Of a DNA stretch of 64,000 bases, positions 29,288 to 61,463 are shown piece by piece. How positions within the stretch are numbered: the first letter of the stretch is position 1; the number at the start of each line of letters is the position of its first letter. A program made the translations under genes and the position numbers. The notes under the pieces were generated by a model. It saw nothing but the letters and a program-made list of their open reading frames with translations. It ran no database searches and had not been told where the DNA came from. Source of the DNA: a virus; the IMG/VR virus record IMGVR_UViG_3300043451_000043; one strand, given 5' to 3'.

Positions 29288-29288
29288 C

Positions 29289-32200
29289 ATGGCCTACTCA
29301 ATTCGCCTCCCAGATGGTTCGCTGGTTCAGAACATCCCTGACAACATTCCACCACACGAGGCGAAGGCTCAAATCCTGCAATCCCGACCTGAGTTCGGCG
29401 ACACCAAACGTTCATGGGGCGAAGCTGCCGGTGACATCGGCGCAAGTGCGTTATCTGGTTTGGGCTCGTTGGCCCAGCTCCCCGGCCAAGCCTATGGGCT
29501 GGCCACAGGTGACTTCGATACTGGCATCCTGCAAGGAGCCAAGAAGTTGTCCAAGTTTGGTGAAAGCCTCAAGTCGGAAGGCTTGCAGGCACGCGAAGCA
29601 AAGCGCGACATCAAAGTAGCTGAGGCCGAGAAGAACGGCCAGCTCAGTGCATTCGGCACGTCGTTTGCCGAGACAGTCAAAGACCCCGCACTGTTCACAT
29701 CGTTCCTTGCGGAACAACTCCCACAACTGTTTGTGCCCGGCTCCGCCGCTATGGGTGCTGGCCGCATGGCGTTTGCCAAGGCTGTTGCCTCTGGCGCTGG
29801 TGAGAAAGCTGCTACCGCTGCCGCAGTTGCCGCCGGTACGGCCGCAGCCAAAGGTGCTGGCGCAGTTCAGCAAGGTGCCGATGTTGGCGCTCAAGCCTAC
29901 GAAGACCTCTACAAACGCCTTGTCAAAGACGGCAAGTCCAAAGAAGAAGCCGCAGCCCAAGCTATTGGTTTAGCGCGTGCCACCGGCGCAAGTGCAGCGG
30001 CTATTTCTTGGTTAGCGCAGGGCTTGCCCGGCGCACAGGCACTTGAGAAGGCGCTCGCAGGTGGCGCTACGAAGTCTGGCATTGCCAAGGCGTTTGCCGC
30101 AGGTGCAGCCGGTGAGGGCGTCAGCGAGATGGTCGAAGAAGGTGGTGGTAAGTTCTCGCAGAACTTAGCCATGCGCGACATTGACCCAACCCAAGCCTTG
30201 ATGCAAGGTGTCGGTGCTACTGCGGGTCAAGCGGCCGTTGGCGGTGTTGGTATGGGCGGTGCCGCAGGTGCTATCTCCAGTGGTCGCGGTCGCCCCGATG
30301 TGGCGCAGGTAGCCAAAGCTGCCAACGTACCGGCTAGCGATTTAGAGAAAGCCAATAACGAACGCATCCTTCGCCAGCAACAAGAACAACTGAGCGCCGC
30401 ACAAGGCAAAGAAGCCCGTGCCGGTGAGAAACTTCTCGCAGCAGAAGACGCAGATTTGGCTGCCCAAGCAGCCGCAGACAGCAAGGCACGGGGCGAAGCA
30501 CTCGCTGCTCAAGAAGCAGAACTCCGCGCAAAGCGCGAGGCTGACCTGCAAGCAGCGTTCCCTTCCGACTACCAAGATGTGATGGCTGGTGCCAACGCAT
30601 ACGCCGAACTGTTCAAAGAGAAGCAGTCGCTTGAGGGTGAGCGCAAGACCAAAGAAGTCCGCGCTCGCATCGCGCAGCTCGACGCCCGTATGCTTGAGAT
30701 TACGGAAGCTGACACCCGCGTGGCTTCTGCTGTGGCACAACTGCAAAAAGATCAAGAGAAGCTGGCAAAAGCCGCTGGCTTCCCCGCCAAGAAGTCTGCC
30801 AAGGCTATGGAGAACGCGCCCGCGCAGATGGAAATGCGTGAAGCGTTGGATGTGCCCACCCAACCACAGACCGATTTGTTTGGTAACCCACTACAAGTCG
30901 CGCCTGACGAAGCCACACCGACCGCAGGCGACTTGCTTGACGGCGTGCCCATGACCACGCAGAACCTCGAAGACGCAGGGCTTGGTCCGACACGCAAAGA
31001 GATGGTTGCCGCAGGACAGCGCAATCTGTTCCAACAACGCCAGCCACGCGGCGGGAAAACCTCCACGCCAACACAAGCTGACACCGGTTTAGAACAAGCC
31101 GTCACAACAGAAGAGCAACCAGTTACCGAGCCCAAGAAGGTTGAGAAGCCTGTCGCGCTCACACCTGAGACTGTGCCCACCACCGTCACACCCGACGTGC
31201 TGGGTGCCTTGGGAATTGGCCGCACAGCCACGATTCGCAAAGCCGACCACGGCATCATGGGCAAAGACATCGCCGACCCAGCACAAGCTGGGGAAGTCAA
31301 GTCCATTCTTGAAGCCTACAAAGAAGGCCGTAGTGCCCCCATCCAGCAGAAGATTGATGCCTACCTCGCACGACCAGAGTTCCAAGCCGCCGCGCCTACC
31401 GCGCCGACTACAACGGGAGAAACAAATGCTCGACCAGTTAAGCAAAAAGGACGTGGAGCTAGCGTTCCAGCACCTGTCGAAACCGATACAGGAAGCGCCG
31501 CCCCCGCAGTTGCAGAATCTGAACGAGCTGGAATGGTTCCTGTTGGACAGGATGTTGGCGCAGATACTGGCCGAAAAGCAAAGTCAGCCGCTCCAGTAAA
31601 CATGTTTGAGCAGTTGGTGCAGAAGGAAAAAGCGCCAGAAGAAGGCACTACACCCGACACCACGCTCAAGTCACTCCCCGACGATGTTGAGGCAGAAGTC
31701 CCCGTCCATCTCCGCCCGTGGGGTGGCGTACAGCTATGGCGTCCAGAATCTCAAGGCGCGGAAGCAATGACCGACGTGCAGGCCGCCCTCCAAGAGAAAG
31801 CACGAGCGGGTGATGTACGTGGTGCCTTGCAGGCTATCCTTGACGCGCCAGCAGGTGTGTACAACGAACTCGACAAGCTGGTGGCAAAACGTCTGCTGGC
31901 TGCTAGCTCGCTACCCACGCTGGAAGTTGTGGCCGCCAAAGAAGGTTCACCTGACGGTACGTACGATGCCGTGAACGACCACGTGCAGTTGACTGAAGGT
32001 TCGGTCGGCAGTCACACACTCTTGCATGAGTTGGTCCACGGGTTCGTCCACCGCATGATTGCCCTGCACGAAGGCGGTATCTCCAAGAACCTGCATATCG
32101 GTAACCTGCGCCAGCTCTACGACTTTATCGCCAAGCAACATCCTGAATTGGTGAAGACCTACGGCATGACAAACCTGAGCGAGTTCGCCTCTGAGGTCAT

Positions 32201-35096
32201 GTCAAACAAGGCGTTCCAGAAAGAACTGCAAAAGATTACCTACCGCCGCGAGAACGCTTTCACCGCGTTTGCCAAATCCGTGCTGCGCATCTTGGGCATC
32301 TCCCCCACCGACCAGAACACCGCACTGGGCTCTGCCCTGATCTCGGTTGAAGCTGTCATGGGTGAAGGCCGCCGCCTGCAAGAATCCGCCAAGGGCACGA
32401 ACGTCGAAGGCTCTCTCGACAATATCGCCAACGTGTGGGGTCAGGGCACACTGGATGCCATCCGCCAGATTCAAGATGCTGTCGGCTCCGATACCCCCGA
32501 ACAAGTTGGTGGGGTAATGGAACAAGCGTTGAGCGGTATCAAGCGTGCGCGTGAGAAGACAGGTATCTTGGCGGCGTTCCGCCAAGCCGCCGTGAACAAG
32601 TACGCCACCGTGGAATCCAAGGTTTCGCAGATGTTCTCGCAAGGCGTGCGCGATGCGTTCGGCAACCTGAACCCGATGTTGCTGGTGCGCCAAGCTGACG
32701 ACAGTGCCAAGACCATCATGGACTTCTTCCGCGCTGGTGGTATCCGAATCAACAAAGATGGTTTGGTAGAAACCTTCGACACCGACGCATCCGCAACACA
32801 GGCGCTCAAGGAAATCCAAGCGTTTGCAGAAGCCGAAGGCATGGACTTCGACAAGGCGAAGAAGGACATCTCCACCGTGTTGGAAGGCCACCGCCTGCAC
32901 TCAATCCGCGAGTTCAACAACCAGCTTGAGCAGTCAGCCAAGATACTGGAAGCCCAAGGCAAGAACAAGCAAGCCGATGCAGAGCGTGCCCGCAAGATTC
33001 GTCTGCACATGACGAACCAAGAGATCGACACGCTCGAAGAAATCTACCAATCTACCCCCCGCATCCAGAAGGTGCAGGAAGTGTTCAACGCAACCCGCGG
33101 TCAAGCGATTGACTTGATGGTGGCCAGCGGCCGCATCACCAAAGAGCGCGGTGAAGATTGGAAATCGAACTCTGCCTACGTGCCGTTTGACCGTGTGCTG
33201 GAAGACATTGGCCCCAACCCTATGCCACGTGGCAAGGGCTTGGCCGTACTCGGCAGCGACCCAAAGATCAAAGGCTCGATGGAGAAGCCAATCAAAAACG
33301 CCATCGACTCGTACATGAACACCCTCGGCTGGATGGTCGAAGATGCCATGAAGAACCGCGCTGCGGTCGAGTTGCTGGAAACTATGGCCGGTGTTGGTTA
33401 CGCTGAGAAGCACGCCAAACCTAGCATGGCCAAGAATGAAAATCTCGTGGTGCCCCGCCTATTCCAAAACGGCGAGCCTGTGTACTTCGAGGTGCAGAAC
33501 GAGTTCGATATGGCTGCGTTCCAGCAGGCCCCAGAGATGACCAACTGGCTCATCAAGGGTCTGGCCGCCACCTCACGATTCATGCGCACCAGCGTCACGG
33601 CAATGCCACCATTTGCGGTCAAGCAGGTGCTGGAAGACGCGACCCGTGCTGCCATGTATTCCGGCGTGGAGCGCCCACTTGTTGTGGCAATGAAGACTTT
33701 GTACAACCTGCCCCGCACCTTCTATGGTGAGTGGACCGGCAAGAAGTCTCCTATGGTCAAGCGCATGGAAGAGTTGGGCATCATCGGTGACTTCGACTTC
33801 AACATCTACCAGCCAACCACCGAGATCGAAAAAGAAATCGGCGCAAAGAAACGTGGCACCGCGGGCACGATCTTCCACAGGCTCGAACAGTTCACCAAGG
33901 CATCTGACTTGGCCGCACGCTTGGCTGTGTACGAAGAGACGATGCGCGACACCAACGGCGACGAAGTGCTGGCCCAGACCCGCGCACGCGAACTGATTAA
34001 CTTCAACCGCCGTGGTTCGTCAGGTACCATGAACACGCTGTCCCGCGTGATTCCCTTCTTCAACGCGTACGCCCAAGGCTTGGATGTACTGTACCGTTCA
34101 GCGTCTGGTATCGACTCGACCAGCTCGATCGAACGTGGTGCAGCACGTCGTTTGTTCTGGAGCCGTGTTGGCATGATGACTGCCTTCGGCATGATGTACG
34201 CCTTGGCCATGTCGGGCGACGACGGCTACGAGAACGCAACGGATGACGTGCGTGACAACAACTGGATTCTGCCCGGTGGCTTCAAACTGCCTGTGCCAAA
34301 AGAATTGGGCTTCATCTTCAAGGTCATCCCAGAGCGTGTCGTCGAATACGCCAAGCGTTCTGGTACCCCAGAAGAGCAGAGCGTAGCTGAAGCGGTCACT
34401 GGCGTGCTCAAGTCGGCGCTGTCCACCTACGGTATGCCAAACACTGTGCCGTCCACCATCCGCCCTGTGCTGGAGAACATGACCAACTATTCGTTCTTCT
34501 TGCAGCGTGAGTTGGAATCCACCTCGATGCAGGGTAAGGAGCCCGGCCAGCGTTACACATCCAGCACATCTGAGTTGGCCAAGGCGATCGGTGAAGCCAC
34601 TAACATGTCGCCAATCAAGATCGACAACCTCATCCGCGGCTGGTTCGGTATGGTTGGTTCGACTACCCTGCTGGCTACCGACGCGATGTTGAACCCAACA
34701 CGCCCTGACCGCCCGATCTACCAGATGCCGTTTGCCAGCATCTTCTTGTACGACACGATTGGTGGCCGCGCCAAGAATGAGTTCTACGACGTTCAGAACA
34801 AGGCAGCGCAGGCTGAGAACACCTTCAACGATCTGCTGGAGAAGGACCCTGCCAAGGCTGAGAAATACCTTGAGAAAAACGAGGCTCTGATTAACGCAGC
34901 ACCGGTGCTGAACTCATCTCTCGAAGAGCTGTCCAACTTGCGCCGATTGCGCCTAATGGTGGAGCAGGGTACCGACGAAGAACTCGGCATGGATGGCGCG
35001 GAACGCCGCAAGTTCATCGACGAGATTCGCCAAAACGAAAACGAGTCCCTGCGCTACGTGCGCGAGTTGAAAAAGCAAATCAACGACGCGCAATAA
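29289..35096 (+). CDS. giant virion protein (~1935 aa) with zincin-like HExxH motif
   Basis: ATG at 29289 right after the previous stop. N-terminal ~900 aa A/E/K/Q-rich coiled coil. HELVH at 32025-32039. Last gene of the + block. Confidence 0.55.
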   Translation: MAYSIRLPDGSLVQNIPDNIPPHEAKAQILQSRPEFGDTKRSWGEAAGDIGASALSGLGSLAQLPGQAYGLATGDFDTGILQGAKKLSKFGESLKSEGLQAREAKRDIKVAEAEKNGQLSAFGTSFAETVKDPALFTSFLAEQLPQLFVPGSAAMGAGRMAFAKAVASGAGEKAATAAAVAAGTAAAKGAGAVQQGADVGAQAYEDLYKRLVKDGKSKEEAAAQAIGLARATGASAAAISWLAQGLPGAQALEKALAGGATKSGIAKAFAAGAAGEGVSEMVEEGGGKFSQNLAMRDIDPTQALMQGVGATAGQAAVGGVGMGGAAGAISSGRGRPDVAQVAKAANVPASDLEKANNERILRQQQEQLSAAQGKEARAGEKLLAAEDADLAAQAAADSKARGEALAAQEAELRAKREADLQAAFPSDYQDVMAGANAYAELFKEKQSLEGERKTKEVRARIAQLDARMLEITEADTRVASAVAQLQKDQEKLAKAAGFPAKKSAKAMENAPAQMEMREALDVPTQPQTDLFGNPLQVAPDEATPTAGDLLDGVPMTTQNLEDAGLGPTRKEMVAAGQRNLFQQRQPRGGKTSTPTQADTGLEQAVTTEEQPVTEPKKVEKPVALTPETVPTTVTPDVLGALGIGRTATIRKADHGIMGKDIADPAQAGEVKSILEAYKEGRSAPIQQKIDAYLARPEFQAAAPTAPTTTGETNARPVKQKGRGASVPAPVETDTGSAAPAVAESERAGMVPVGQDVGADTGRKAKSAAPVNMFEQLVQKEKAPEEGTTPDTTLKSLPDDVEAEVPVHLRPWGGVQLWRPESQGAEAMTDVQAALQEKARAGDVRGALQAILDAPAGVYNELDKLVAKRLLAASSLPTLEVVAAKEGSPDGTYDAVNDHVQLTEGSVGSHTLLHELVHGFVHRMIALHEGGISKNLHIGNLRQLYDFIAKQHPELVKTYGMTNLSEFASEVMSNKAFQKELQKITYRRENAFTAFAKSVLRILGISPTDQNTALGSALISVEAVMGEGRRLQESAKGTNVEGSLDNIANVWGQGTLDAIRQIQDAVGSDTPEQVGGVMEQALSGIKRAREKTGILAAFRQAAVNKYATVESKVSQMFSQGVRDAFGNLNPMLLVRQADDSAKTIMDFFRAGGIRINKDGLVETFDTDASATQALKEIQAFAEAEGMDFDKAKKDISTVLEGHRLHSIREFNNQLEQSAKILEAQGKNKQADAERARKIRLHMTNQEIDTLEEIYQSTPRIQKVQEVFNATRGQAIDLMVASGRITKERGEDWKSNSAYVPFDRVLEDIGPNPMPRGKGLAVLGSDPKIKGSMEKPIKNAIDSYMNTLGWMVEDAMKNRAAVELLETMAGVGYAEKHAKPSMAKNENLVVPRLFQNGEPVYFEVQNEFDMAAFQQAPEMTNWLIKGLAATSRFMRTSVTAMPPFAVKQVLEDATRAAMYSGVERPLVVAMKTLYNLPRTFYGEWTGKKSPMVKRMEELGIIGDFDFNIYQPTTEIEKEIGAKKRGTAGTIFHRLEQFTKASDLAARLAVYEETMRDTNGDEVLAQTRARELINFNRRGSSGTMNTLSRVIPFFNAYAQGLDVLYRSASGIDSTSSIERGAARRLFWSRVGMMTAFGMMYALAMSGDDGYENATDDVRDNNWILPGGFKLPVPKELGFIFKVIPERVVEYAKRSGTPEEQSVAEAVTGVLKSALSTYGMPNTVPSTIRPVLENMTNYSFFLQRELESTSMQGKEPGQRYTSSTSELAKAIGEATNMSPIKIDNLIRGWFGMVGSTTLLATDAMLNPTRPDRPIYQMPFASIFLYDTIGGRAKNEFYDVQNKAAQAENTFNDLLEKDPAKAEKYLEKNEALINAAPVLNSSLEELSNLRRLRLMVEQGTDEELGMDGAERRKFIDEIRQNENESLRYVRELKKQINDAQ

Positions 35097-49453: not shown

Positions 49454-49658
49454 ATCTTTCCTCCTTACTCACATAGCTGATTCGCAAGAACAGCGCCCAG
49501 CCAAACAACCCAGTGCTGATAGCGTAGAACATGCGGTCTTCCCGAGCCCACATGAATGGGTCGAAGTTGGCACCTACGATAGCCATAAATGGATACACCA
49601 ATGCCGCCGACACAATGAACGGCGTGACGCACAGCGTCATCTCTTTAAGTTCTTTCAT
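49437..49658 (-). CDS. small membrane protein
   Basis: 73 aa, hydrophobic helices. Confidence 0.4.
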   Translation of the reverse strand: MKELKEMTLCVTPFIVSAALVYPFMAIVGANFDPFMWAREDRMFYAISTGLFGWALFLRISYVSKEERYATTI

Positions 49659-50146
49659 TGTGCCACCTCTTTACCTTTAGGCCAACCCAACTTGCTCAAG
49701 TCAGCCACAACATTTGCAAGGGCTGGTAGTGTGGTGATCGGTTTCTCAATCGTCGGGAAGTAGCTCTTGAACTCGGGCAGTCGGTCGTTGAGTTGTTTGA
49801 TAGTGGTACATGCCATGACAGCAGCTTTGAGCGAGTCACGTGCGTTCTGCCGCGCCTTGTCTTCGTCGTGGTATTTCTGCTTGAGCTGGTCAAGGGTCTT
49901 GGTTTCAACATCCCCGATGACCACATCCCGCGTACCCCAGCTACACCCGTCGTATATCAAATCGCCGAAGTGGTGGGTGCGTAACGCGTGCGGTGCCTTC
50001 TTGTACAGCTTGCGGCACTCAGGTGACATGGCCTTGACGATGGCGGCTTGCAGTTCCTCCCTGCGCTTCTTCTTGTCTGGTACCGGCACATCATTCATGA
50101 TGGCGCGGACGATTGCCTCTTTATCCCATTTGGTGATGCGTGACAT
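49655..50146 (-). CDS. hypothetical protein
   Basis: 163-aa ORF. Confidence 0.4.
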   Translation of the reverse strand: MSRITKWDKEAIVRAIMNDVPVPDKKKRREELQAAIVKAMSPECRKLYKKAPHALRTHHFGDLIYDGCSWGTRDVVIGDVETKTLDQLKQKYHDEDKARQNARDSLKAAVMACTTIKQLNDRLPEFKSYFPTIEKPITTLPALANVVADLSKLGWPKGKEVAQ

Positions 50147-50330
50147 TTGATTCCCCTTTGATGATTGGTTTTACATGGCATGAATGGTGGAGGGTGCTGA
50201 GACCCTCCCCCTCTAGTTGGCAGACGTACCGCCATTTGTTCTTCCACAGGTAGCGCCCGAGGAACGTGAACCGTTGGCCTGTACGTTTGAGCATGAATCT
50301 CGCCCCTTCGGGCAGCTCCCGTAGAAACAT
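50121..50330 (-). CDS. hypothetical protein
   Basis: Start assigned to the internal Met (MFLREL) so that it abuts the SPFH gene stop. Low certainty. Confidence 0.3.
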   Translation of the reverse strand: MFLRELPEGARFMLKRTGQRFTFLGRYLWKNKWRYVCQLEGEGLSTLHHSCHVKPIIKGESNVTHHQMG

Positions 50331-51133
50331 CACTTCACGTGAATGAATGGCGTGGCGTTGCCCGACATAGTGGCAGGCAGCTTGCCGTCCCACTTCTTGA
50401 TGGCTTCGAGGTCAACGAACTGCTGGCCGCCCTGTGCTGACACGGCAGATGCCTTGATACGGATTGCATCGGCTACACCCTGAGCCTCGACACGCATACG
50501 CTCGGCTTCGGCCTTGGCCAACTCAACTTCCTTCTGCTTGGCGTTGATCTGGAATTGGCGGTTGGCCGCTTCCATGATGGCCTTCTCAAGTGCGGGGTCG
50601 GTCACGAGGTTACGCACGTTGGCACTACGCACAAAGAACCAGCCCTTACCTGCTGACTCGTCGAGGTCCTTCTGCAACTGCTTGACCACATCGGCAGCGA
50701 TTGACGTGCGCTCAGTGTGTACCGTGGCAGAGCCGTACTTGGTCACCGTGTTGTAGATGTTCTCACGTGCTTGGCGGGTCACATAGTTCATACCGATGCG
50801 TGCGCCGTCTTCGCCCTTCTCATAGGTTACGTCGCCCGGCCAGCGGGTCATGATGTCCGCAGCTTTGCTTGGGTCGATCTGAATGTAGATGTCCACGTCC
50901 AAGTCAGACAGTGTGATCTTGTCGCTTGTCTGCGGCTTCATGTCGTCGAACTTCAGCAAGAGTTCTTTTGCAGATACCTCGGTCACACGTTTGAACATGG
51001 TGAAGTACACGCCCGGCGGCATGGTCTCATGCTTGACCTGACCCAGCGTGGATTCCACACCGATGTTGCCCGTGTCGATTTGTGAACATGCTGTCAGCCA
51101 GACAGCGGCGAATGCGATTAAAAGTCGTTTCAT
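50330..51133 (-). CDS. SPFH/band-7 (prohibitin/HflKC-like) domain lipoprotein
   Basis: MKRLLIAFAAVWLTAC is a signal peptide plus lipobox. Body has the SPFH-like arrangement with a C-terminal coiled coil AKAEAERMRVEAQ. Confidence 0.55.
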   Translation of the reverse strand: MKRLLIAFAAVWLTACSQIDTGNIGVESTLGQVKHETMPPGVYFTMFKRVTEVSAKELLLKFDDMKPQTSDKITLSDLDVDIYIQIDPSKAADIMTRWPGDVTYEKGEDGARIGMNYVTRQARENIYNTVTKYGSATVHTERTSIAADVVKQLQKDLDESAGKGWFFVRSANVRNLVTDPALEKAIMEAANRQFQINAKQKEVELAKAEAERMRVEAQGVADAIRIKASAVSAQGGQQFVDLEAIKKWDGKLPATMSGNATPFIHVK

Positions 51134-51143
51134 GTATCTCTCC

Positions 51144-51380
51144 TTAAAAGATTTTTCCGGAACCAAAAGTAGCTTGCGTCATGAACGCCAGCCATACGAG
51201 TAAGAACAATGCCACCACCTTGAACAGATGTGTGCCACGGAACTTACGCAAAGCGTCCTTGGCCTCGCTCGGCAGGTAGTACCAACCGAAGTAGCCAATG
51301 AACACAATTAGGGTGAGGGCAATGAGATGTTTCATTTCCACGTCCTCCACATATAGACACCGATAAATATCCACATGCAC
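51144..51380 (-). CDS. small membrane protein
   Basis: 78 aa, two TM helices. Confidence 0.4.
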   Translation of the reverse strand: MHVDIYRCLYVEDVEMKHLIALTLIVFIGYFGWYYLPSEAKDALRKFRGTHLFKVVALFLLVWLAFMTQATFGSGKIF

Positions 51381-51637
51381 ACACCGATAGCCAAGTACGC
51401 CTTGTCTTGCCAGCGTTGCTCAGGTGGGTAGAACGATTCCATGCCGTCACCTAGATGGCGGAACGCATCGTCTGTTGTGCGTGGGAAGCACCGTGTCGTA
51501 GGGCAACCGTGGTTGTCGATGTAGTGCTGGGCACGTTCACGTGTCGATGCACGTACAACCTTGGGCTTCTTATAGATAGCGACGAGCAGCCTACGCTTGA
51601 CTCGCGTCTTGATGATTGTGTAGATACGGTTAAACAT
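51332..51637 (-). CDS. hypothetical protein
   Basis: 101 aa, TM near the C-terminus. Confidence 0.35.
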   Translation of the reverse strand: MFNRIYTIIKTRVKRRLLVAIYKKPKVVRASTRERAQHYIDNHGCPTTRCFPRTTDDAFRHLGDGMESFYPPEQRWQDKAYLAIGVCMWIFIGVYMWRTWK

Positions 51638-51963
51638 TATTTAATCTCTCCAAAAAATCTGCCTTGGGTTGGGTCCCCAGTGCCGTCATAGAAAGCACTC
51701 ATCTTGTCTTGTGCCATGTCAATGATGACCTTACGCTTCTTCACAAGATGCTTGCTGTTCTCAGACACCAGCCAGTACGCGTCACCGATGCGGTGGCCGA
51801 TGGATTTAATCTCACCCATAGGGTCAACCATACTGAGCAATGCCACATCCTTGCGTACCCAATCGGGCAACGCCTCGTCCGTGAACGTAGCACTGGGGCC
51901 GATCGTGTCTGTCGTGTTCTCAAGGTAGCACGTCAGCGACCAGCGCCCGCTTGGTTTGCGCAT
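51637..51963 (-). CDS. hypothetical protein
   Basis: Start assigned to the internal Met (MRKPSG) downstream of the VWA gene stop. Confidence 0.35.
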   Translation of the reverse strand: MRKPSGRWSLTCYLENTTDTIGPSATFTDEALPDWVRKDVALLSMVDPMGEIKSIGHRIGDAYWLVSENSKHLVKKRKVIIDMAQDKMSAFYDGTGDPTQGRFFGEIK

Positions 51964-52006: not shown

Positions 52007-53176
52007 TCACATATGAACGGTAACGCCGTTAGCAGCGGTGATATGTCGGTTGTCAGCGATACACCAGAGTATTGGCGCAGGCCAATCGGTGCCCCAGCTT
52101 CCGAAGACTTCACCGTCTGTAAGCATGACGATACAGTCGGGTTTGATATTGTGCTCATTGAGATAGGCAGACATGCACTCGGGGTCGGTGCCGCCGCCAC
52201 CTTTAGGCTTAGTGGATTCGCGCAGTGTTGATAGCGCGGCTTCGTCATAGGTTTCGTGTGCTGCAACGTTGTGCCCCCAGTAAATCAGATCGACCATCTC
52301 AGGCTTCACAGAATCAAAAATTGATTGCGCCTCGGACAAGAAAGCAGCCAGTTCCTTGTTGCCAATAGAGCCAGACGTGTCTACGCCCACCGCGATGCGG
52401 AAGATGCGATCACTGAAGGTTGTGGGCAACATCAGGTCTTGGCTTTGGAAACGTCGATTGATACGACGATAGCTTGAGTAGTCGTCGCCAACCTTACTGT
52501 TCGTGATGAACTCACGCAACGCCTCACGCCAATCAACCTTAGGCTCCAGCATGTCGAGTAGGGCGCGGTCAACGTTCACGCCAGCCTTGGATGCAAGGAT
52601 GCCGCCTTGACGCAACGCGCCGTCAATCGTGCGGGCCAGCTCATCCACCTCATCAGGTGTCATGTCTTCGGTGCTGTCCCAATCGTGTTGGTCGAAGCCT
52701 GCATTGCCAGACTTACCTGCGGAGCTGCCACCGTTGGGGTACTGTTGCTTGAGCTTGCGGAACACCTCACCTGCGTCCATGCCACGGTACTGCTCGTCGA
52801 GGCAACCACCATCAGGCAGTTTGACGAAACGATCTTTGAGGTAGCGGTCGTTGATCGGCAGGTTGATAACGAAGTCACACGCCATGTTCGCAAGCATGGG
52901 GTCTTCCTTATACATCCAGCGCCAGATGAACGTGTGCTTAAACGCGCAGTGCATCTTCTCATGCAACACCAAACCCATCAGCTCTTGGTCAGACAAGGTA
53001 GCAATGAATTGTTGGCTGTACTTGGTGTTCACGCCATCGGTACATGCGGTCACCGCAGGGTCATCGACCACTTCGGTTTTGCCATACATGATGATGCCAG
53101 CAAGCATCATGTACTCAGGGTCACGGATGAGTGACACGTGAGCGCGTTCGAGTCGCTGTTGTGGTGTTAAGTTCAT
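52007..53176 (-). CDS. VWA domain protein with N-terminal putative metallopeptidase (HExxH) domain (DUF2201/VWA-like architecture)
   Basis: LVLHEKMHCAF contains HExxH. VDTSGSIG is a D-x-S-G-S MIDAS motif. Partnered with the MoxR ATPase. Confidence 0.6.
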   Translation of the reverse strand: MNLTPQQRLERAHVSLIRDPEYMMLAGIIMYGKTEVVDDPAVTACTDGVNTKYSQQFIATLSDQELMGLVLHEKMHCAFKHTFIWRWMYKEDPMLANMACDFVINLPINDRYLKDRFVKLPDGGCLDEQYRGMDAGEVFRKLKQQYPNGGSSAGKSGNAGFDQHDWDSTEDMTPDEVDELARTIDGALRQGGILASKAGVNVDRALLDMLEPKVDWREALREFITNSKVGDDYSSYRRINRRFQSQDLMLPTTFSDRIFRIAVGVDTSGSIGNKELAAFLSEAQSIFDSVKPEMVDLIYWGHNVAAHETYDEAALSTLRESTKPKGGGGTDPECMSAYLNEHNIKPDCIVMLTDGEVFGSWGTDWPAPILWCIADNRHITAANGVTVHM

Positions 53177-53177
53177 A

Positions 53178-53555
53178 TTACCTCCGGCCTATCGGCCCTT
53201 TCGATCTGAGTTTCTTGAGTTCGGCTAAGTCTTTGCTTACCTGCTCGGCGTGTCGCTTCACAGCTTCGTCAACCATCGGCCCGAGGAGCCGCTGTACTTC
53301 GCTACCCACACCATCAGCCAGTATCAAGCGCAGGTTACGTTGCAATTGGTCTTCAAAGTAATGCTTGAGTGGTGTGCGCATGGTTTTAAGCTCTGCGTCA
53401 ACCAGCTTGCCTGATACCCAACTGCAAACCTCGGGGCGATCGAACACCGCCGCCATAGCTGCGTGGATACGGTCAGTCACAACGTCGCCGTCTTTCAACA
53501 GCATCCACGCATCAGCCTTTTGCTTTTCTTCTGGTGTCATCGTGAGCCCTTCCAA
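53178..53555 (-). CDS. hypothetical protein
   Basis: 125-aa ORF between the VWA and MoxR genes. Confidence 0.4.
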   Translation of the reverse strand: MEGLTMTPEEKQKADAWMLLKDGDVVTDRIHAAMAAVFDRPEVCSWVSGKLVDAELKTMRTPLKHYFEDQLQRNLRLILADGVGSEVQRLLGPMVDEAVKRHAEQVSKDLAELKKLRSKGPIGRR

Positions 53556-53848
53556 GGTAGGGGTTGAATTGCATTCTGGTTGTTAGCTATCTGACCAGAT
53601 GTGTTGCTGGCAAACTGCGAGTTGTATATCTGCTGTGCCATTTGATTCTTGGTGTTCATCATCGACTGCGCCAGACTGTTCTGATACTGCTGTGATTGAT
53701 ACGCCATACGCTCCCGCTCAAGGGTATCGAGCGCGTTTTGTATTAGCTGTGGGTTCTTCAGAAGCACGGCGAGAATCTTCTTCTCGACGGCTTCATCCGC
53801 AGACAACAGTATGGCGGCGTTCGCTTTGTTGTTATCTTTCTCGTTCAT
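53537..53848 (-). CDS. Q/N-rich hypothetical protein
   Basis: Start at the internal Met (MNEKDNN), giving ATGA coupling with the MoxR stop. Confidence 0.35.
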   Translation of the reverse strand: MNEKDNNKANAAILLSADEAVEKKILAVLLKNPQLIQNALDTLERERMAYQSQQYQNSLAQSMMNTKNQMAQQIYNSQFASNTSGQIANNQNAIQPLPWKGSR

Positions 53849-53852
53849 GGCA

Positions 53853-54908
53853 TCACACGAACATGTATTGATTCTGGATAGCGAAGCCCGTGAACTTGCT
53901 GTTGTCGAGCACGAACGCCTTGCTGTCTTTCTTGATAGCAGTGGTGCAGAACAACGCTTGCATTTCCTTGGGCATACGTGCCATGTAATCCATCCACGCA
54001 TCGAGTGTGCCTTCCTCAACCCAGTTCAACGCTTGGTGAGTCAGCATCATCTTGCCTGCGATTTCCTTAGGCATCTTGGCGTTCTCAGGGTCAGCAAGAA
54101 TCTCGGCACGCTTGGGCAACGAGTCACCCATAGCAATCCACGCTTGCAAGTCAACGGTAGCTGGCGCACCGATGGTGCCGATCAGTGCCACCTCAAGCGC
54201 GTTGTTGGTGAAGCGATGACGGTTGTTCACGATCTTGCTGGCCTGTGTCAACGAGCGGTGTGTCACGAACGCAGTGCGTTGTGCCTTGGGGTGGAAGATG
54301 TATGGGTTGTCGTTCGGGTCTTGGTAGTGATCGAACGGTGCCAACGCCTCGGGGCGCTCACCTGCCCACATGATGATCTCAGGTGCCACGCCATTGAGTG
54401 ATGCGTAGTCGTCAATCCATTCCTTAGCGGTAGGCTTGGCCATCTTCACGAATGATAGGCGGTTGCGGTGGTGTGCTTGGAACGTATCGCCCACAGACTC
54501 AGAGCCTAGGTTGGTCGTTGCAAACACGATGCTGTCAGGGTGCAGGTATTGGTTACCCAAGCGGCGCTCAACCAGCAGAGGTAGGGCCGCATCTTTCACA
54601 GGCTTGGATGCCTTACCCATCTCGTCCAGCATGAGGACGACAGGCGTGTTGTCGTGCATACCCAGCGAAGCGTTGGGGTAGAACTCAGATGACTTGGTTG
54701 CGTGGTCAACAGCAGGTACACGGAAGTCACCCTCGTGCATCACAGTCATGTCGAGGTACATCTTGCGGTGCGTAGGGAAACGCTTGGCCACCATGTCGAT
54801 CAAAGATGATTTACCAGAACCGATGTGGCCCTCAACAATAGTGGTCACGTCAGCGCCAGTGGCGGAGATAAAGTCAACGGTCTCGTTGTAGTTCATGTGA
54901 GCTTGCAT
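53853..54908 (-). CDS. MoxR-family AAA+ ATPase
   Basis: Walker A GHIGSGKSS, Walker B VVLMLDEMGKA. Size and arrangement as in MoxR/CbbQ-like ATPases. Confidence 0.65.
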   Translation of the reverse strand: MQAHMNYNETVDFISATGADVTTIVEGHIGSGKSSLIDMVAKRFPTHRKMYLDMTVMHEGDFRVPAVDHATKSSEFYPNASLGMHDNTPVVLMLDEMGKASKPVKDAALPLLVERRLGNQYLHPDSIVFATTNLGSESVGDTFQAHHRNRLSFVKMAKPTAKEWIDDYASLNGVAPEIIMWAGERPEALAPFDHYQDPNDNPYIFHPKAQRTAFVTHRSLTQASKIVNNRHRFTNNALEVALIGTIGAPATVDLQAWIAMGDSLPKRAEILADPENAKMPKEIAGKMMLTHQALNWVEEGTLDAWMDYMARMPKEMQALFCTTAIKKDSKAFVLDNSKFTGFAIQNQYMFV

Positions 54909-54925
54909 AGTAGTCTTTCAGTTGG

Positions 54926-55792
54926 TTAGATTTCAAGTTGGAATTTTTCTACGAGGTCATTCATCTTTGTCTTGACTGACTCACGTAGCTCAGGGGACTC
55001 ACGTAGGGATTTGATGTCTACGTTCTCTAATGACAGCTCAAGCTGTCGTCGTGCTTCTTCTAGCTTGGGGTCGTCCAGCACGTTAAGCGATTTCAATGTC
55101 TCGCACAAACGCAGGGCGTTCTCAAGCATGGATGCAAACAACTTCGATGGCTTGCCATCTTCTTTGGGCACCATCTTGTTGCGGATGTGGGTGATCTCTA
55201 GATACAACCTATCCCACGGCTCGATCATGGCATCCTCAAGGCGGTCACGCATGGTCGCTTCGAACTTGTCCTTGAGCTGCTGTGCGGCCTCGGCAGGTAT
55301 GTCTACACGGAAGTCACCAGACTCAGGCACAGGTGTGAAGTGGTAGCGTAGGGCAAACTTCTTATGGAGGTCTGACGCGTCAGGGTACTCTTTCGAATCG
55401 AAAAGTTTTCCCAGCTTGAAAGCCTGTGCTGCTACCTTTGTCGAGTAGTTATTCACAAACCTATCCACAAGCGCGTTGAACTGTTGCTCGTGCTGATTCA
55501 GCTCGTGGCTAATGTCGAAGAACGCTTTGGTTGGTACCAAGCGTGTGCCTGTGTCTGACCACGGCAGAGTCACCTGATACAACCATGTGCGCACCAAGCC
55601 AGCGTACGAATTGATCGCGGCTAGGTCATCGTCCTCAGCAAACAGATTCTTGTGAACCGATGTAGCTGAAGCACGTGCGCCCTTGGCCAAGCTAACCTCG
55701 TTGGCTGTTGCCTTGTCTTGCTTGCGCCCTGTGTACACAGAGATGTTTAAGTCGAGCAGCATCGCACTCGACGAGAGTGATTTATGTTTCAT
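54926..55792 (-). CDS. hypothetical protein (first gene of the MoxR-VWA cluster)
   Basis: 288-aa ORF. Confidence 0.45.
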   Translation of the reverse strand: MKHKSLSSSAMLLDLNISVYTGRKQDKATANEVSLAKGARASATSVHKNLFAEDDDLAAINSYAGLVRTWLYQVTLPWSDTGTRLVPTKAFFDISHELNQHEQQFNALVDRFVNNYSTKVAAQAFKLGKLFDSKEYPDASDLHKKFALRYHFTPVPESGDFRVDIPAEAAQQLKDKFEATMRDRLEDAMIEPWDRLYLEITHIRNKMVPKEDGKPSKLFASMLENALRLCETLKSLNVLDDPKLEEARRQLELSLENVDIKSLRESPELRESVKTKMNDLVEKFQLEI

Positions 55793-55810: not shown

Positions 55811-56272
55811 TTAAGCAGTGCGCAAGATTTCGATCTTGTTCGTGGTCTTGTTGGTGCACACCTTGTGCGAGTCATTGCCGAAGCACTTGGCCGCAGCGTT
55901 GGACACCGTACTGAGCAAGTCGTGCAGATTCACGTCACACATAATCATCTCAGGGGTCAAGCCAATCTCGGCCACATCACCAACCTTGAGGCATTCAACG
56001 TAAGGCAAGACTGCGTTGCGCATCGAACCGTATGGCATTTTCAAAGCGCGGCGTTTGGCTTCTTTTTTGGGGGGCTTGGCGGCCACCAGTTCCAAAGAAC
56101 CCTGCGTGATAGTCGTGCCATCGCTCAAGCGAATGATGTACTCAGTACCAGCCACAGCCAGTAGGCGCAGCGCCTGCTCGATGGTACGTTTGACAATCTC
56201 AGGCGCAGTAGATGCGGCGAGAGTAGGGTTTGTTACTTGGTTCACGGTGCGTGAGTTGTTTGCGTTTGTCAT
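55811..56272 (-). CDS. hypothetical protein
   Basis: 153-aa ORF, RBS GGAGA. Confidence 0.45.
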   Translation of the reverse strand: MTNANNSRTVNQVTNPTLAASTAPEIVKRTIEQALRLLAVAGTEYIIRLSDGTTITQGSLELVAAKPPKKEAKRRALKMPYGSMRNAVLPYVECLKVGDVAEIGLTPEMIMCDVNLHDLLSTVSNAAAKCFGNDSHKVCTNKTTNKIEILRTA

Positions 56273-56341
56273 AGAAGTTTCTCCAGTTAATTTGTTTACA
56301 TGATGAAGTTTACATCATAAAGTTGGTTGTGTCAAGTATGT

Positions 56342-57173: not shown

Positions 57174-57677
57174 TTAGTTGTCGAAGAAGAAAACGAATCG
57201 GAAGTCAGTGGCGTCATCTTCTTCGCGCACGTTCACCCCACAATAGGTTTCTAGAAATAGAAGAACAGCACGGTTAGCCCCATACTCCAGCACATCCTTT
57301 GCGTATTGCTTTTGCAGGTGGCCTATCGTTTCATCGTTCTGTTCATCAACGGCCTCGATGTACTTGGCTACAAACTCAGGCGCTAAACAATGCGAATGGC
57401 TATGCCCATCCCCTCGCCACTCAGTGACGTACTGCGTGTATAGGGGCGACGCATCTGGTGGTATACCCCTTGGCGCAGGGCCCTCACCACGCACGCCAGC
57501 TAGCTTGGCAAACAATCGGTAGAACCTACCTTCTACTTGCCAGAACAGCGCGCTTGACCAACTACGGTCGCCGTCCATACCAAATGCTATGCGTGATGCT
57601 GGTGCAAAGGTTTGCACAGTCGCCCACTCGCCGTTCTTCAATCGCTTCTCAGCGTACAGGTGAATGTCTGCGCCCAT
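57174..57677 (-). CDS. hypothetical protein
   Basis: 167 aa, contains HSHSHC. Confidence 0.4.
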   Translation of the reverse strand: MGADIHLYAEKRLKNGEWATVQTFAPASRIAFGMDGDRSWSSALFWQVEGRFYRLFAKLAGVRGEGPAPRGIPPDASPLYTQYVTEWRGDGHSHSHCLAPEFVAKYIEAVDEQNDETIGHLQKQYAKDVLEYGANRAVLLFLETYCGVNVREEDDATDFRFVFFFDN

Positions 57678-58873: not shown

Positions 58874-59959
58874 TCACTGTGGCATGTGCAAGGTATCGAA
58901 CACAGTACACAACACGCTGTCCATGTCGTGCGTCTCGGCGAGTGCTTGCCAACGCTTGATAGCCTTGGGCGTGATCTTCTTCTTGTCGAGGAACTTCAAC
59001 GCGAACTCAGGGTCTTCGGGGTACACAGACTCAGCGGCCATCCACAACAACTCGTCAGGCCAACCGAACTCTGCGTCAGTCAACGCGTCTTGCAAGATGC
59101 CCGTGCCAAGCATGTCATCGTCATACGAAGAAAGCCACCAGTTCTTCTTGCCGAACGCAGAGCCTTGGTACTTGTCCTCGACCTCACCAGCTTTCCTACT
59201 CGTAGGAAGTTTGTCCCACTTGATGTTGAGCACAGCTTCACTCAATGCAATGAAGTGTTGAATGTCGAGGGACTCGTGTTCGCTATGCTCACGGGCGTAG
59301 CCTACCGATATGTTGGTGCATTCGGGGATGATGTCAACGAACTCGGCTGTGTCGGTATAGACACCGCTGTCGTCAGGCAGATACATCATGCGCTCGTCTG
59401 CGTTCAATGCGTCAGCTAGTGCTTGGCCAAACGCATCAGAGCAACAACGACCCCACCCTTGGTGTGTGATAACGCTGTCGATACCACGGCGGTCAAAGGC
59501 AATGGCTCGGTCGAACTCACCCAGTAGGTCAGCGTGATGCTCGGCGATATGCTTGGCACCGATGCCGCCACATTCCTCACCCTGCGAGAAGATGTAATAG
59601 CCAGCCACGTCATTGTGAATCAGGTGCATGAGCATTGCACAGCCAGCGCCGTCATCTGCGCCGAGTGGTGCGCCATTCGCGTGCCAATGTGTATCGGTCT
59701 TGCGAATCTTGTTAGCACCTACCTCACGATGCACTGTGTCAACGTGTGAGATGAACAAGGTACGGCTGTCACCATCGTGTCGATTGTCTACGTGCAGGTT
59801 GTCGCAGTCATCGAGGAACGCACGTTCAGCGAGATGCACAGGTAACTCTTGCCACAGCCATTGCGTAAAGAAGTCAACGCTAGGTGTATTGTGTGGTCGC
59901 TTCATAGACAGGCCACGAGCGAGAGTTGTATAGAGGATAGAGTGTTTGTTGAATGTCAT
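58874..59959 (-). CDS. M20/M28/M42-type zinc metallopeptidase-like protein
   Basis: ISHVDTVH (HxDTV), GADDGAG (resembles GADDKAG of peptidase T), SQGEECGGIGA (EE-x-G). Confidence 0.45.
   Translation of the reverse strand: MTFNKHSILYTTLARGLSMKRPHNTPSVDFFTQWLWQELPVHLAERAFLDDCDNLHVDNRHDGDSRTLFISHVDTVHREVGANKIRKTDTHWHANGAPLGADDGAGCAMLMHLIHNDVAGYYIFSQGEECGGIGAKHIAEHHADLLGEFDRAIAFDRRGIDSVITHQGWGRCCSDAFGQALADALNADERMMYLPDDSGVYTDTAEFVDIIPECTNISVGYAREHSEHESLDIQHFIALSEAVLNIKWDKLPTSRKAGEVEDKYQGSAFGKKNWWLSSYDDDMLGTGILQDALTDAEFGWPDELLWMAAESVYPEDPEFALKFLDKKKITPKAIKRWQALAETHDMDSVLCTVFDTLHMPQ
59193..59208. repeat. palindrome TTCCTAC-TC-GTAGGAA (intragenic copy)
   Basis: Perfect 7+2+7 inverted repeat inside the M20-like gene. 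Confidence 0.45.
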
Positions 59960-60005: not shown

Positions 60006-61463
60006 TTACTCAGCGGTTTCGCTGGCTTCGTCTTGCTCAGGTGCATCGTCAGGGTGGTATGTCTCACCATCCACAGTCACAGGCTCGACTTCGCTGTATA
60101 GGTAGTAGTCGGATGTGGCGTAGCATTTCCATGCGTCATCCTCATGCGCCCACTCACCATCGTGCAGTTGCACACAGTTCTTGACTAGGCGGTACTCGCT
60201 GTCGTGTTCGCAGTAGCAGACACGATCATCGTCAGTGGCATACCAATCACCGTCAATACACACGGCGTCATCTTCGGCGCACAGGTCACCGTTATCAAGG
60301 CGCACGAGGCTGTTGTCATCGAGATAGTCGGTGTCTACGTATTCATCCCAGCCCTCGACCCACTCAACGTTGTCCTCGTGGATGTAGCGTTGGTAACCGT
60401 GTCGGCTGTACGCATAGCGGTAGTTGTTGTCAACACACGATGAACACACATGGCTGTCCTCGTCTGCGCCAACCCAGTAGCCGTCACCATCATCGAAGCG
60501 GGTGCCACAGTCCTCACATTCCTCGCTGCCAGCTTCCTCAGTCGTGCCGTCAGTTTGGTTGCAGGTGTAGTCACCGCAGTCAGCGATGAACAAACCCACA
60601 GGCTTGCCATCTACGAACTCAATGTCAACCTCTTGGTTGCAGCCATCGAGATACGGTGCGAGGAAATCTTCGGGGTTGCGGCCACGTGATACGTACTTGA
60701 GCTTGGTGCCCCACGCATAGCCACCACAATGTGCATACCCCTGAGCCTTGAGCCATGCGGCCAGCGTCTCGTCAGCGTTGCTATACCCACCATGCGGGTC
60801 TTTCTTGTAGGTGCGGACGAAATACTTGTTGCCATGCTGGTCGGTGTTGCACAGCGCACGACCCACGGTGTCGCCGTCATAGATACGCACAGCCATGTGC
60901 CAGCCCAAGGTTGGGCAATAGGTTTCGTAGGGGTGACGGCCAGCGTCAGCGCCCCACACCATGCACGAGCGTGGGCCTTTGAGCAGGTGGTAGAGCATTT
61001 CCGCTGTGGTGTGTACGAACTTCATGTCGCTGTTGCTATGCAACGCAACCAAGTCACGCAGTGCATGGTCAGGCAGCATGGTGAAGTGCGCACGTAGGTA
61101 CTTGCCGATGGATGTGACTACCTGACGGTCAGCCTCGCCACTACGCTCGTCCCGTGTGTAGGCCAAGCGGGTGGTGTCAGTCGTGGATTCATGCGGCCAT
61201 TGCAAGAGCAACAGTTGCCAATCGTCAGGCCGTGACATACGCAAAGCCTTACGCACGATGGGGTGCAGTGGATAGCGTTCTTGCTCACGTTGGTGCCATG
61301 CACGTGCTGGTCGTGCGATATACGGCTCACCTAATAGGTGGCGCTGTTGGTACTCAGACCACACATATCGGCGGTCTACCCGTGCGGTGCGCAGGATGCG
61401 AGCGGCTTGGTTAAAGATGTTTTCCATATCATCGGCGTTGTAGCCGTGTTCGATGTATTCCAT
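60006..61463 (-). CDS. hypothetical Cys-rich, highly acidic protein
   Basis: 485 aa. C-terminal half D/E/C/Y-rich with multiple CxxC pairs. Confidence 0.45.
   Translation of the reverse strand: MEYIEHGYNADDMENIFNQAARILRTARVDRRYVWSEYQQRHLLGEPYIARPARAWHQREQERYPLHPIVRKALRMSRPDDWQLLLLQWPHESTTDTTRLAYTRDERSGEADRQVVTSIGKYLRAHFTMLPDHALRDLVALHSNSDMKFVHTTAEMLYHLLKGPRSCMVWGADAGRHPYETYCPTLGWHMAVRIYDGDTVGRALCNTDQHGNKYFVRTYKKDPHGGYSNADETLAAWLKAQGYAHCGGYAWGTKLKYVSRGRNPEDFLAPYLDGCNQEVDIEFVDGKPVGLFIADCGDYTCNQTDGTTEEAGSEECEDCGTRFDDGDGYWVGADEDSHVCSSCVDNNYRYAYSRHGYQRYIHEDNVEWVEGWDEYVDTDYLDDNSLVRLDNGDLCAEDDAVCIDGDWYATDDDRVCYCEHDSEYRLVKNCVQLHDGEWAHEDDAWKCYATSDYYLYSEVEPVTVDGETYHPDDAPEQDEASETAE

Follow-up and report, generated by a model that had tools for sequence, protein, structure and literature searches.

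An AAA+ ATPase, an HExxH–VWA adaptor and a DUF3150 protein encoded as a linked trio in a phage genome and on conjugative plasmids

A 64,000-nucleotide stretch of viral DNA (IMG/VR record IMGVR_UViG_3300043451_000043), hereafter called the window, was analysed with emphasis on positions 52,007 to 55,792, where the original prediction had described a MoxR-class AAA+ ATPase, a von Willebrand factor A (VWA) metallopeptidase and three uncharacterised partner genes. All five open reading frames (ORFs) are present on the minus strand at the positions given there. From the upstream end, they encode a 288-aa protein of the DUF3150 family (54926–55792, −; Pfam PF11348), a 351-aa AAA+ ATPase of the phage N4 gp24 family that is MoxR-class by structure and CbbQ/NorQ-like (53853–54908, −), a Q/N-rich protein of 103 aa (53537–53848, −), a 120-aa protein (53178–53540, −) and a 389-aa adaptor of the N4 gp25 family (52007–53176, −), in which a zincin-like HExxH domain (DUF2201_N) is followed by a C-terminal VWA domain (DUF2201) with a full metal ion-dependent adhesion site (MIDAS). 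The window is a phage genome: genes for the terminase, the portal and virion proteins occupy the plus arm, and the minus arm encodes a DUF927 primase-helicase, an SNF2 helicase, PolA and an exonuclease. Our analysis indicates that the functional unit is very probably the trio of ATPase, adaptor and DUF3150 protein and not the quintet, and this trio is encoded in the non-structural arm, ahead of the genes for primase, helicase and PolA; its assignment to an early operon, as in the original prediction, is putative.

The Walker A, Walker B, HExxH and DxSGS motifs quoted in the original prediction were all found. In the ATPase, Walker A (GHIGSGKS) spans residues 27–34 and Walker B (VLMLDE) residues 91–96; K33, D95 and E96 are invariant in 40 homologues, and the sensor 1 residue N133 and the arginines R148/R150 are invariant or nearly so. 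In the adaptor, HEKMH occupies residues 72–76 and DTSGS residues 266–270. Both the HExxH residues with further conserved positions (H72, E73, H76, H81, N97, D101 and N105) and the MIDAS set (D266, S268, S270, T330 and D354) show no variation among 20 diverse homologues from phages, plasmids and N4-like phages. Since the motif residues are kept in this way, the motifs of the two proteins are not chance strings, and the invariance across very diverse homologues makes the HExxH and MIDAS sites of the adaptor look functional. Profile searches confirmed the VWA-metallopeptidase gene, with Pfam matches to the putative metallopeptidase domain DUF2201_N (E 1.5e-20) and to the VWA-like DUF2201 (E 3e-14). 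With the adaptor family profile, weak alignments were also obtained to the integrin alpha-X I-domain, at its MIDAS region (DGSGS), and to M48 and minimal zinc proteases, and no close solved structure was found for the family. An identical adaptor protein is encoded on a 65,038-bp JGI contig. The core idea of an AAA+/VWA-metallopeptidase module in a phage holds.

By sequence and profile comparison, the ATPase and the adaptor are assigned to the phage N4 gp24/gp25 family, a pair that is already catalogued and that the original prediction did not name. The ATPase aligned with N4 gp24 over 278 columns, including the C-terminal helical domain (hhalign, 98.9% probability, E 1e-17), and the adaptor matched N4 gp25 over residues 33–389 (BLASTP, 24% identity, E 3e-25). 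The window pair falls in phrog_1297 (ATPase, E 2e-42) and phrog_1314 (adaptor, E 9e-79). The AAA+ ATPase gp24 and the vWFA protein gp25 are core middle genes of N4-like phages (Schitoviridae), and they have been listed for more than 15 years as a core pair without an assigned function. In tblastn searches of GenBank phage records, the adaptor was detected in 566 and the ATPase in 302, mostly in N4-like phages of Pseudomonas, Escherichia, Vibrio, Klebsiella and other hosts. The N4 genes resemble the window pair in belonging to the same PHROGs and in being neighbouring, co-directional and situated, within the non-structural arm, before the DNA polymerase gene, whereas N4-like phages have no DUF3150 gene beside the pair. 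A 280-aa protein encoded upstream of the ATPase in phage KPP21 was considered as a hidden DUF3150 member and was found to be a second AAA protein. The window phage itself is unrelated to N4 by its terminase, which is of the HTVC023P/MinM2 type; its TerL is 43–46% identical to the counterparts in Pelagibacter phage HTVC023P, phage DSL-LC04 and Synechococcus phage MinM2.

PHROGs labels phrog_1314 as ‘HNH endonuclease’. The same label is carried in GenBank by N4 gp25, by KPP21 ORF078, by Vibrio phages D4xx/D5xx and also by the DUF3150 protein Tunturi_3 gp96. Because Pfam gives DUF2201_N and VWA for the gp25-family adaptor and no HNH domain, the label looks like a propagated mis-annotation.

The two genes had been described as the classic MoxR/VWA pair. 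The pairing of an AAA+ ATPase with an HExxH and VWA (MIDAS) protein was upheld, and the word ‘classic’ requires qualification. The ATPase falls below every Pfam AAA threshold (AAA_5 at 17.5 bits against a cut-off of 22), with no match to AAA_3 or CbbQ_C. Among 40 relatives of the ATPase, searched at E values up to 0.1, AAA_5 was detected in 39 and AAA_3, the model of MoxR proper, only weakly in 7, and CbbQ_C was not among the 25 Pfam families listed. A sequence-profile search of the PDB with the ATPase retrieved the AAA modules of midasin (E 1e-7), followed by Hsp104/ClpB and NtrC-type proteins, and did not recover RavA, CbbQ or the Cytophaga MoxR protein (2R44); single-sequence PDB searches with the three large proteins gave noise only. 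When predicted structures were compared, the nearest solved structures were NorQ, CbbQ and midasin, although the margin over other AAA+ proteins was small. In the AlphaFold2 (AF2) model of the ATPase, strands at residues 66–68 and 73–75 lie between beta2 and beta3 and short strands at approximately 115–121 precede beta4, as read from the DSSP string; these strands are candidates for the helix-2 insert and the pre-sensor-1 beta-hairpin of the helix-2-insert clade. NorQ, CbbQ and midasin are each AAA+ motors that act with a VWA/MIDAS partner, and a gene for such a partner adjoins the ATPase gene. As the top structural neighbours all work through a partner of this kind, the modelled ATPase is regarded as MoxR-class in fold and partnership, divergent, and failing the curated sequence signatures.

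The 288-aa protein had been presented as an unknown that precedes the pair; its status as a partner was borne out, and it is not wholly unknown. It matches Pfam DUF3150 (PF11348) at 31.7 bits (cut-off 24.9) over model positions 4–232 of 257, and 38 of its 40 relatives match the same model. DUF3150 is a large orphan family of approximately 9,500 clusters at 50% identity, and no literature on the function of DUF3150 or DUF2201 was found. The AF2 model (predicted local distance difference test score, pLDDT, 84) has an N-terminal portion of alpha/beta type and an extended helical bundle, with no informative PDB neighbour. The invariant acidic residues D26, D80, D160 and D241 could be ligands of the adaptor MIDAS. 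Longer DUF3150 proteins were inspected for informative fusions and none was found; one was an apparent assembly chimera with a hydrolase fragment.

At least 596 IMG/VR viral contigs carry a DUF3150 relative. The best 80 IMG/VR loci were used for a linkage test, in which all ORFs were searched with hidden Markov models of the three families, and a locus was considered fully flanked when at least 4.5 kb was available on both sides of the DUF3150 gene (n = 33). The ATPase, the adaptor and DUF3150 were co-directional in all of these fully flanked loci (33/33), the 288-aa protein thus being linked to the pair throughout. Where one partner was not seen, the sequence ended on the side on which that partner was expected. 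Three gene orders were observed, namely, ATPase–VWA–DUF3150 in the majority, DUF3150–ATPase–VWA as in the window, and ATPase–DUF3150–VWA. The same pattern was found in individually fetched contigs, in phage MinM2 and in phage-like contigs of metagenome-assembled genomes (MAGs). The trio is also present outside phages: DUF3150 and the adaptor were detected by tblastn in the same large plasmids of Burkholderia, Paraburkholderia, Cupriavidus, Ralstonia, Variovorax and Rhodovastum, many of them conjugative, and a compact ATPase–DUF3150–VWA block is carried by the conjugative Burkholderia plasmid pBVIE02 and by a Rhodovastum plasmid. These plasmid blocks adjoin type IV secretion system (T4SS), toprim and ParB genes. 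That the three genes stay linked through repeated rearrangement argues strongly for their acting together, and the obligate association of ATPase, VWA/peptidase and DUF3150 across phages and plasmids appears to be new.

The only relative of the trio for which genetics is available is found in the IncC/SXT elements. In the Escherichia coli IncC plasmid pAR060302 (8680–16673 of the extracted locus), the genes are arranged in the order of an AAA_5 and CbbQ_C ATPase, a 302-aa protein, ssb, bet, exo, DUF3150 and a 598-aa VWA protein. The DUF3150 protein is canonical (425 aa, E 4e-91), and the 598-aa protein contains HEAAH at residues 61–65, a weak CobT match and a C-terminal VWA domain with DMSSS. 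This region resembles the window at the level of families and architecture, as both, on mobile elements, hold an AAA_5 ATPase, a DUF3150 gene and a gene for an N-terminal HExxH and a C-terminal MIDAS VWA domain. It differs from the window in that the ATPase carries CbbQ_C, the DUF3150 and CobT-like VWA proteins are much larger, and four genes separate the ATPase from DUF3150 and the VWA gene; none of the neighbouring window genes tested was annotated as ssb, bet or exo. In the IncC plasmid pVCR94, deletion of vcrx089-090 reduces transfer 25-fold into a recipient proficient in type I restriction and not into an hsdR mutant, and the Vcrx089 ATPase together with Vcrx090 confers type I restriction evasion when expressed in the recipient (PMC7498323). 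With a reverse transcription primer in vcrx094, vcrx087, vcrx089 and bet were placed on one transcript, and the authors reported the vcrx089-090 phenotype to be partly dependent on ssb/bet/exo (PMC7498323). The two genes downstream of exo were not discussed in the published transposon sequencing (TnSeq) study. The architectural echo of the trio beside this defence-evasion operon appears not to have been described before.

On these grounds, a mechanism can be proposed by analogy. A ring-forming MoxR-class ATPase, a VWA/zincin adaptor and a DUF3150 protein would constitute a three-protein machine of mobile elements. The VWA domain of the adaptor would dock on the ATPase ring, as in NorQ/NorD, CbbQ/CbbO and Mdn1; the MIDAS site would grip an acidic side chain of a client protein; and ATP hydrolysis would pull on the client or reshape it, after which the HExxH domain may cut it. 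DUF3150 would serve as a specificity or scaffold subunit, or would itself be the first client. Expressed with the replication genes soon after DNA entry, the trio would target a host protein or complex by which the incoming DNA is threatened or limited, thereby contributing to establishment or defence evasion. A function in establishment in a new cell is suggested because phages and conjugative plasmids alike carry the trio, and restriction evasion is suggested because the IncC result points in this direction. Taken as a whole, including the role in establishment or defence evasion, this explanation is advanced tentatively and is considered to have somewhat less than an even chance of being correct, with the biological role as its weakest step.

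Several observations weigh against this explanation. The distant DUF3150 phage Tunturi_3 has no ATPase or VWA match within 6 kb. The adaptor is no more than a putative peptidase. In N4-like phages the pair belongs to the core, and it is regularly found in the company of replication and recombination genes, which fits a housekeeping role about as well. Anti-defence genes are usually accessory, whereas gp24/gp25 are core, and in this respect housekeeping fits better. The link to the IncC elements is also distant, as phmmer detected nothing between the IncC and window proteins, hhalign gave probabilities of 11–50%, and Vcrx090, the demonstrated partner of Vcrx089, has no homologue in the window. 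Moreover, only vcrx089-093 were depleted in the IncC TnSeq screen, and the downstream DUF3150 and VWA genes were not (PMC7498323). The identity of vcrx094 with the DUF3150 gene, and with it the co-transcription of that gene, is inferred from the gene order of pAR060302.

A housekeeping function is the alternative that fares best. The trio might be a replication or recombination accessory that loads, matures or clears proteins at incoming or replicating DNA, for example in replisome assembly, in the removal of host DNA-binding proteins or in the protection and processing of DNA ends, with no part in counter-defence. The location of the trio, which in the window and in its relatives is always in the replication arm near PolA, helicase and primase, is consistent with such a function, and so is the status of gp24/gp25 as core and middle genes of N4-like phages. 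In the IncC elements, the three families flank ssb-bet-exo in one operon with a phenotype that partly depends on these genes, and the plasmid copies lie beside toprim, ParB and T4SS genes. On the other hand, no DNA-binding or nuclease domain is recognisable in any of the trio proteins, the MoxR/VWA couples that have been studied act on proteins and not on DNA, and the one relative that has been tested gave a restriction-evasion and not a replication phenotype. We regard an accessory role in replication as rather unlikely but as the strongest of the alternatives.

Within the proposed mechanism, a more specific and bolder version can be formulated, in which the trio would be a widespread and hitherto unrecognised class of ATP-driven counter-defence protease of mobile elements: DUF3150 would recognise a host restriction or DNA-targeting complex, the MIDAS would grip it, the ring would extract or unfold it and the zincin would cut it. 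This version is speculative and rather improbable as it stands; if true, it would provide a function for N4 gp24/gp25 and for the anti-restriction activity of the Vcrx089 region of IncC/SXT elements. The obligate partnership in one large phage lineage and in conjugative plasmids merges two unknowns into a single defined machine of three proteins, and an experimental entry is offered by the IncC/SXT elements, where the three families recur around the operon for host-defence evasion. Should the machine prove to disable a host factor by ATP-driven remodelling or proteolysis, phages and resistance plasmids would share a new type of device for establishment or counter-defence; otherwise the machine would be a conserved replication-associated chaperone, which is useful and less striking.

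The small genes that separate the ATPase gene from the adaptor gene had been counted, with DUF3150, among three partner genes, and of the three only DUF3150 was retained as a partner. The remark that one of them is Q/N-rich proved accurate, as Q and N make up 27% of its 103 residues and 32% of residues 41–103. This protein is a singleton cluster at 90% identity, and in approximately 110 related loci its only homologue is a 97-aa protein at locus L112 (42% identity, E 5e-15). Pfam and PHROG searches assigned it to no family and gave a single weak match, below threshold, the name of which is probably a low-complexity artefact since no VWA domain is detectable. Homologues of the 120-aa protein occur only at L011 (59% identity), L112 (61%) and L021. 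In L012, L013, L017 and L018, whose DUF3150 proteins are 64–79% identical to that of the window, the ATPase and VWA genes abut with no small genes between them. At L011, the junction holds an unrelated 75-aa gene and the homologue of the 120-aa gene. At L112, where the adaptor is 92% identical, four genes occupy the junction, including the 97-aa Q/N-rich homologue and a 121-aa homologue of the 120-aa protein, and the junction DNA is unalignable though the flanking genes are 85–86% identical. The 169-aa gene that fills the junction at L003 (9209–9718) has a homologue elsewhere in the window, at 57174–57677 (−; 32% identity, E 2e-19), whose 167-aa product begins MGADIHLY and has no Pfam family; this homology is evidence of small-gene shuffling around the trio.

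Over 68 ATPase–VWA junctions, 24 are no longer than 60 nt and 43 exceed 150 nt, and other junctions of the trio are interrupted equally often. In phage MinM2 (6881–7907 of its locus), three tandem paralogous small genes of 111–115 aa, 34–51% mutually identical, are present between the DUF3150 and VWA genes. The junction small genes were examined as a possible single family and are not homologous between lineages. The ATPase–VWA junction is thus a hypervariable insertion site that holds zero to four small, mostly unrelated ORFs. The two window genes are best read, from these comparisons, as real and fast-evolving passengers in an insertion hot spot and not as parts of the machine; this conclusion is incompatible with the claim that they are partners, given their absence from four related loci and the turnover of the junction between phages with flanks approximately 86% identical.

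A five-gene module, in which the Q/N-rich and 120-aa proteins would be working partners (clients or regulators) of the ATPase/VWA pair, is accordingly improbable. Translational packing can be cited in its favour. The refined start of the Q/N-rich gene is an ATG 4 nt past the ATPase stop, that of the 120-aa gene is an ATG overlapping the preceding stop as ATGA, and the adaptor gene, with a GGAGG ribosome-binding site, starts 1 nt past the stop of the 120-aa gene. A small ORF also separates the ATPase and VWA genes in many relatives and in the N4-like phages KPP21 and nACB1, but N4 itself has none and shows just a 167-nt gap. The non-homology of junction ORFs between lineages, the short junctions, the four loci with no such ORF, the unalignable four-ORF junction of L112, the displaced homologue of the L003 gene and the equal interruption of the other junctions all speak against a five-gene unit.

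Around the trio, the minus strand at 51.6–56.3 kb forms a run of tightly packed genes. A 153-aa gene (55811–56272, −) lies 18 nt upstream of the DUF3150 start; it has homologues in the same position only in the closest clade (L011, L012, L016–L023 and L112) and is probably the first gene of the transcription unit of the trio. The only sizeable upstream intergenic gap contains a sigma-70-like promoter match (56307–56335, −; TTGACA-17-TAAACT, 10/12), which is weak evidence because the region holds three matches of this kind against 8.5 in shuffled sequence. Downstream, a 108-aa gene (51637–51963, −), with no Pfam family for its product, is loosely associated with the trio: homologues follow directly past the last trio gene in L011–L013, L017–L023 and L112, with weaker matches elsewhere, and the gene was found in 8 of the 33 fully flanked loci (E 1e-5).

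Further genes of the window and of related phages were recorded. An SPFH/Band-7 lipoprotein gene (phrog_200; 50330–51166, −) lies approximately 0.8 kb downstream of the trio, and an SPFH protein encoded near the gp24/gp25 pair of the N4-like phage nACB1 (1464–2279 of locus L015) is a homologue of its product (26% identity, E 5e-14). In N4, gp20 (NC_008720, 8256–9092), annotated only as ‘lipoprotein’, is four genes upstream of gp24. The SPFH lipoprotein and the pair may belong to a wider conserved neighbourhood common to unrelated phage groups. A 163-aa protein (49655–50146, −) contains an Nmad5 (nucleotide modification associated) domain, and genes of the dGTP_diPhyd_N (dGTP diphosphohydrolase-like) type are found nearby in relatives L011 and L112; these genes hint that phages of this group may have modified DNA bases. 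A gene for an M28/M20-like peptidase (58874–59959, −; phrog_4191, E 1e-66) follows one for a 485-aa protein without a family (60006–61463, −), and the two are kept at the same position upstream of the trio in L011–L013. At the end of the structural arm, a 1971-aa protein (29181–35096, +) has an LPD38 ‘large polyvalent protein’ domain. Delivery together with the DNA, as a means of countering host defences, has been proposed for such proteins. The nucleotide search of GenBank phages with the region gave no match, and a scan of a genome collection matched only phage-like contigs binned into unrelated MAGs, from which no host can be inferred.

The trio was compared with known ATPase/VWA systems, among which the vWA-MoxR ternary conflict systems had been named in the original prediction as one possible setting. 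In these systems, too, a MoxR-class ATPase and a vWA protein are accompanied by a third, distinctive protein; VMAP, iSTAND, FtsH or a beta-propeller takes this third place, effectors are fused, and the genes are borne on host chromosomes, with enrichment in multicellular bacteria, and not on phages or plasmids (Kaur et al. 2020). The window locus might be a phage-borne conflict or exclusion system in which DUF3150 replaces VMAP/iSTAND, senses a competitor and releases an effector. The ternary architecture with a largely helical third protein agrees with this idea (Kaur et al. 2020), as does the weak match of the bpMoxR model to 7 of the 40 ATPase relatives. Nevertheless, NCBIfam and PADLOC scans of all five proteins returned nothing, Pfam matches to VMAP, iSTAND, FtsH or a beta-propeller were absent from the 40 relatives (E up to 0.1), no toxic effector domain was detected, and the pair is core in strictly lytic N4-like phages while known conflict systems are chromosomal. 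Membership in the conflict systems was therefore abandoned, and a phage-borne derivative is very improbable.

Still less probable is a chaperone-protease for virion or tail assembly, similar to the MoxR/VWA pair proposed for tail development of the archaeal virus ATV. A MoxR-vWA couple has been connected with tail assembly in an archaeal virus (cited in Kaur et al. 2020), and in roseophage RPP1 the gp24/gp25 homologues are close to a ‘second structural module’. The trio of the window is in the non-structural arm, far from the terminase-to-tail block, and conjugative plasmids, from which no virions arise, carry the same trio.

A cobaltochelatase-like auxiliary metabolic module for raising cobalamin synthesis in the host, the finding that would have refuted the original prediction, is effectively refuted: CobS/CobT do consist of an AAA_5-type ATPase and a VWA protein, cobS/cobT labels are frequent in phage and plasmid annotations of relatives, and the distant IncC relatives have CbbQ_C and a weak CobT match, but the window proteins lack CbbQ_C, CobT and CobT_C signatures, no ORF of the window is a CobN-sized candidate (the only ones of at least 900 aa encode the 946-aa DUF927 primase and the 1971-aa LPD38 protein), the conserved HExxH domain of the adaptor is foreign to chelatases, and DUF3150, which is linked to the pair, has no place in cobalt chelation.

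Further parallels are offered by NorQ/NorD, CbbQ/CbbO and midasin. The NorQ hexamer binds one NorD, the VWA domain of which plugs the pore, and surface carboxylates of the client are required (PMC9976466); the CbbQO system has likewise been described (PMC4660213). These systems resemble the window in that they contain the nearest solved ATPases together with an adjacent MIDAS VWA partner. They differ in that each serves one metabolic enzyme (cNOR or Rubisco) in maturation or repair, their adaptors are without HExxH, their ATPases carry CbbQ_C and no DUF3150 partner is present. Midasin (Mdn1/Rea1) gave the best PDB profile match and a top structural match, and its AAA_5 modules and MIDAS domain strip proteins from a complex; unlike the window proteins, it is a eukaryotic protein in which one giant polypeptide holds six AAA modules, and it functions in ribosome biogenesis.

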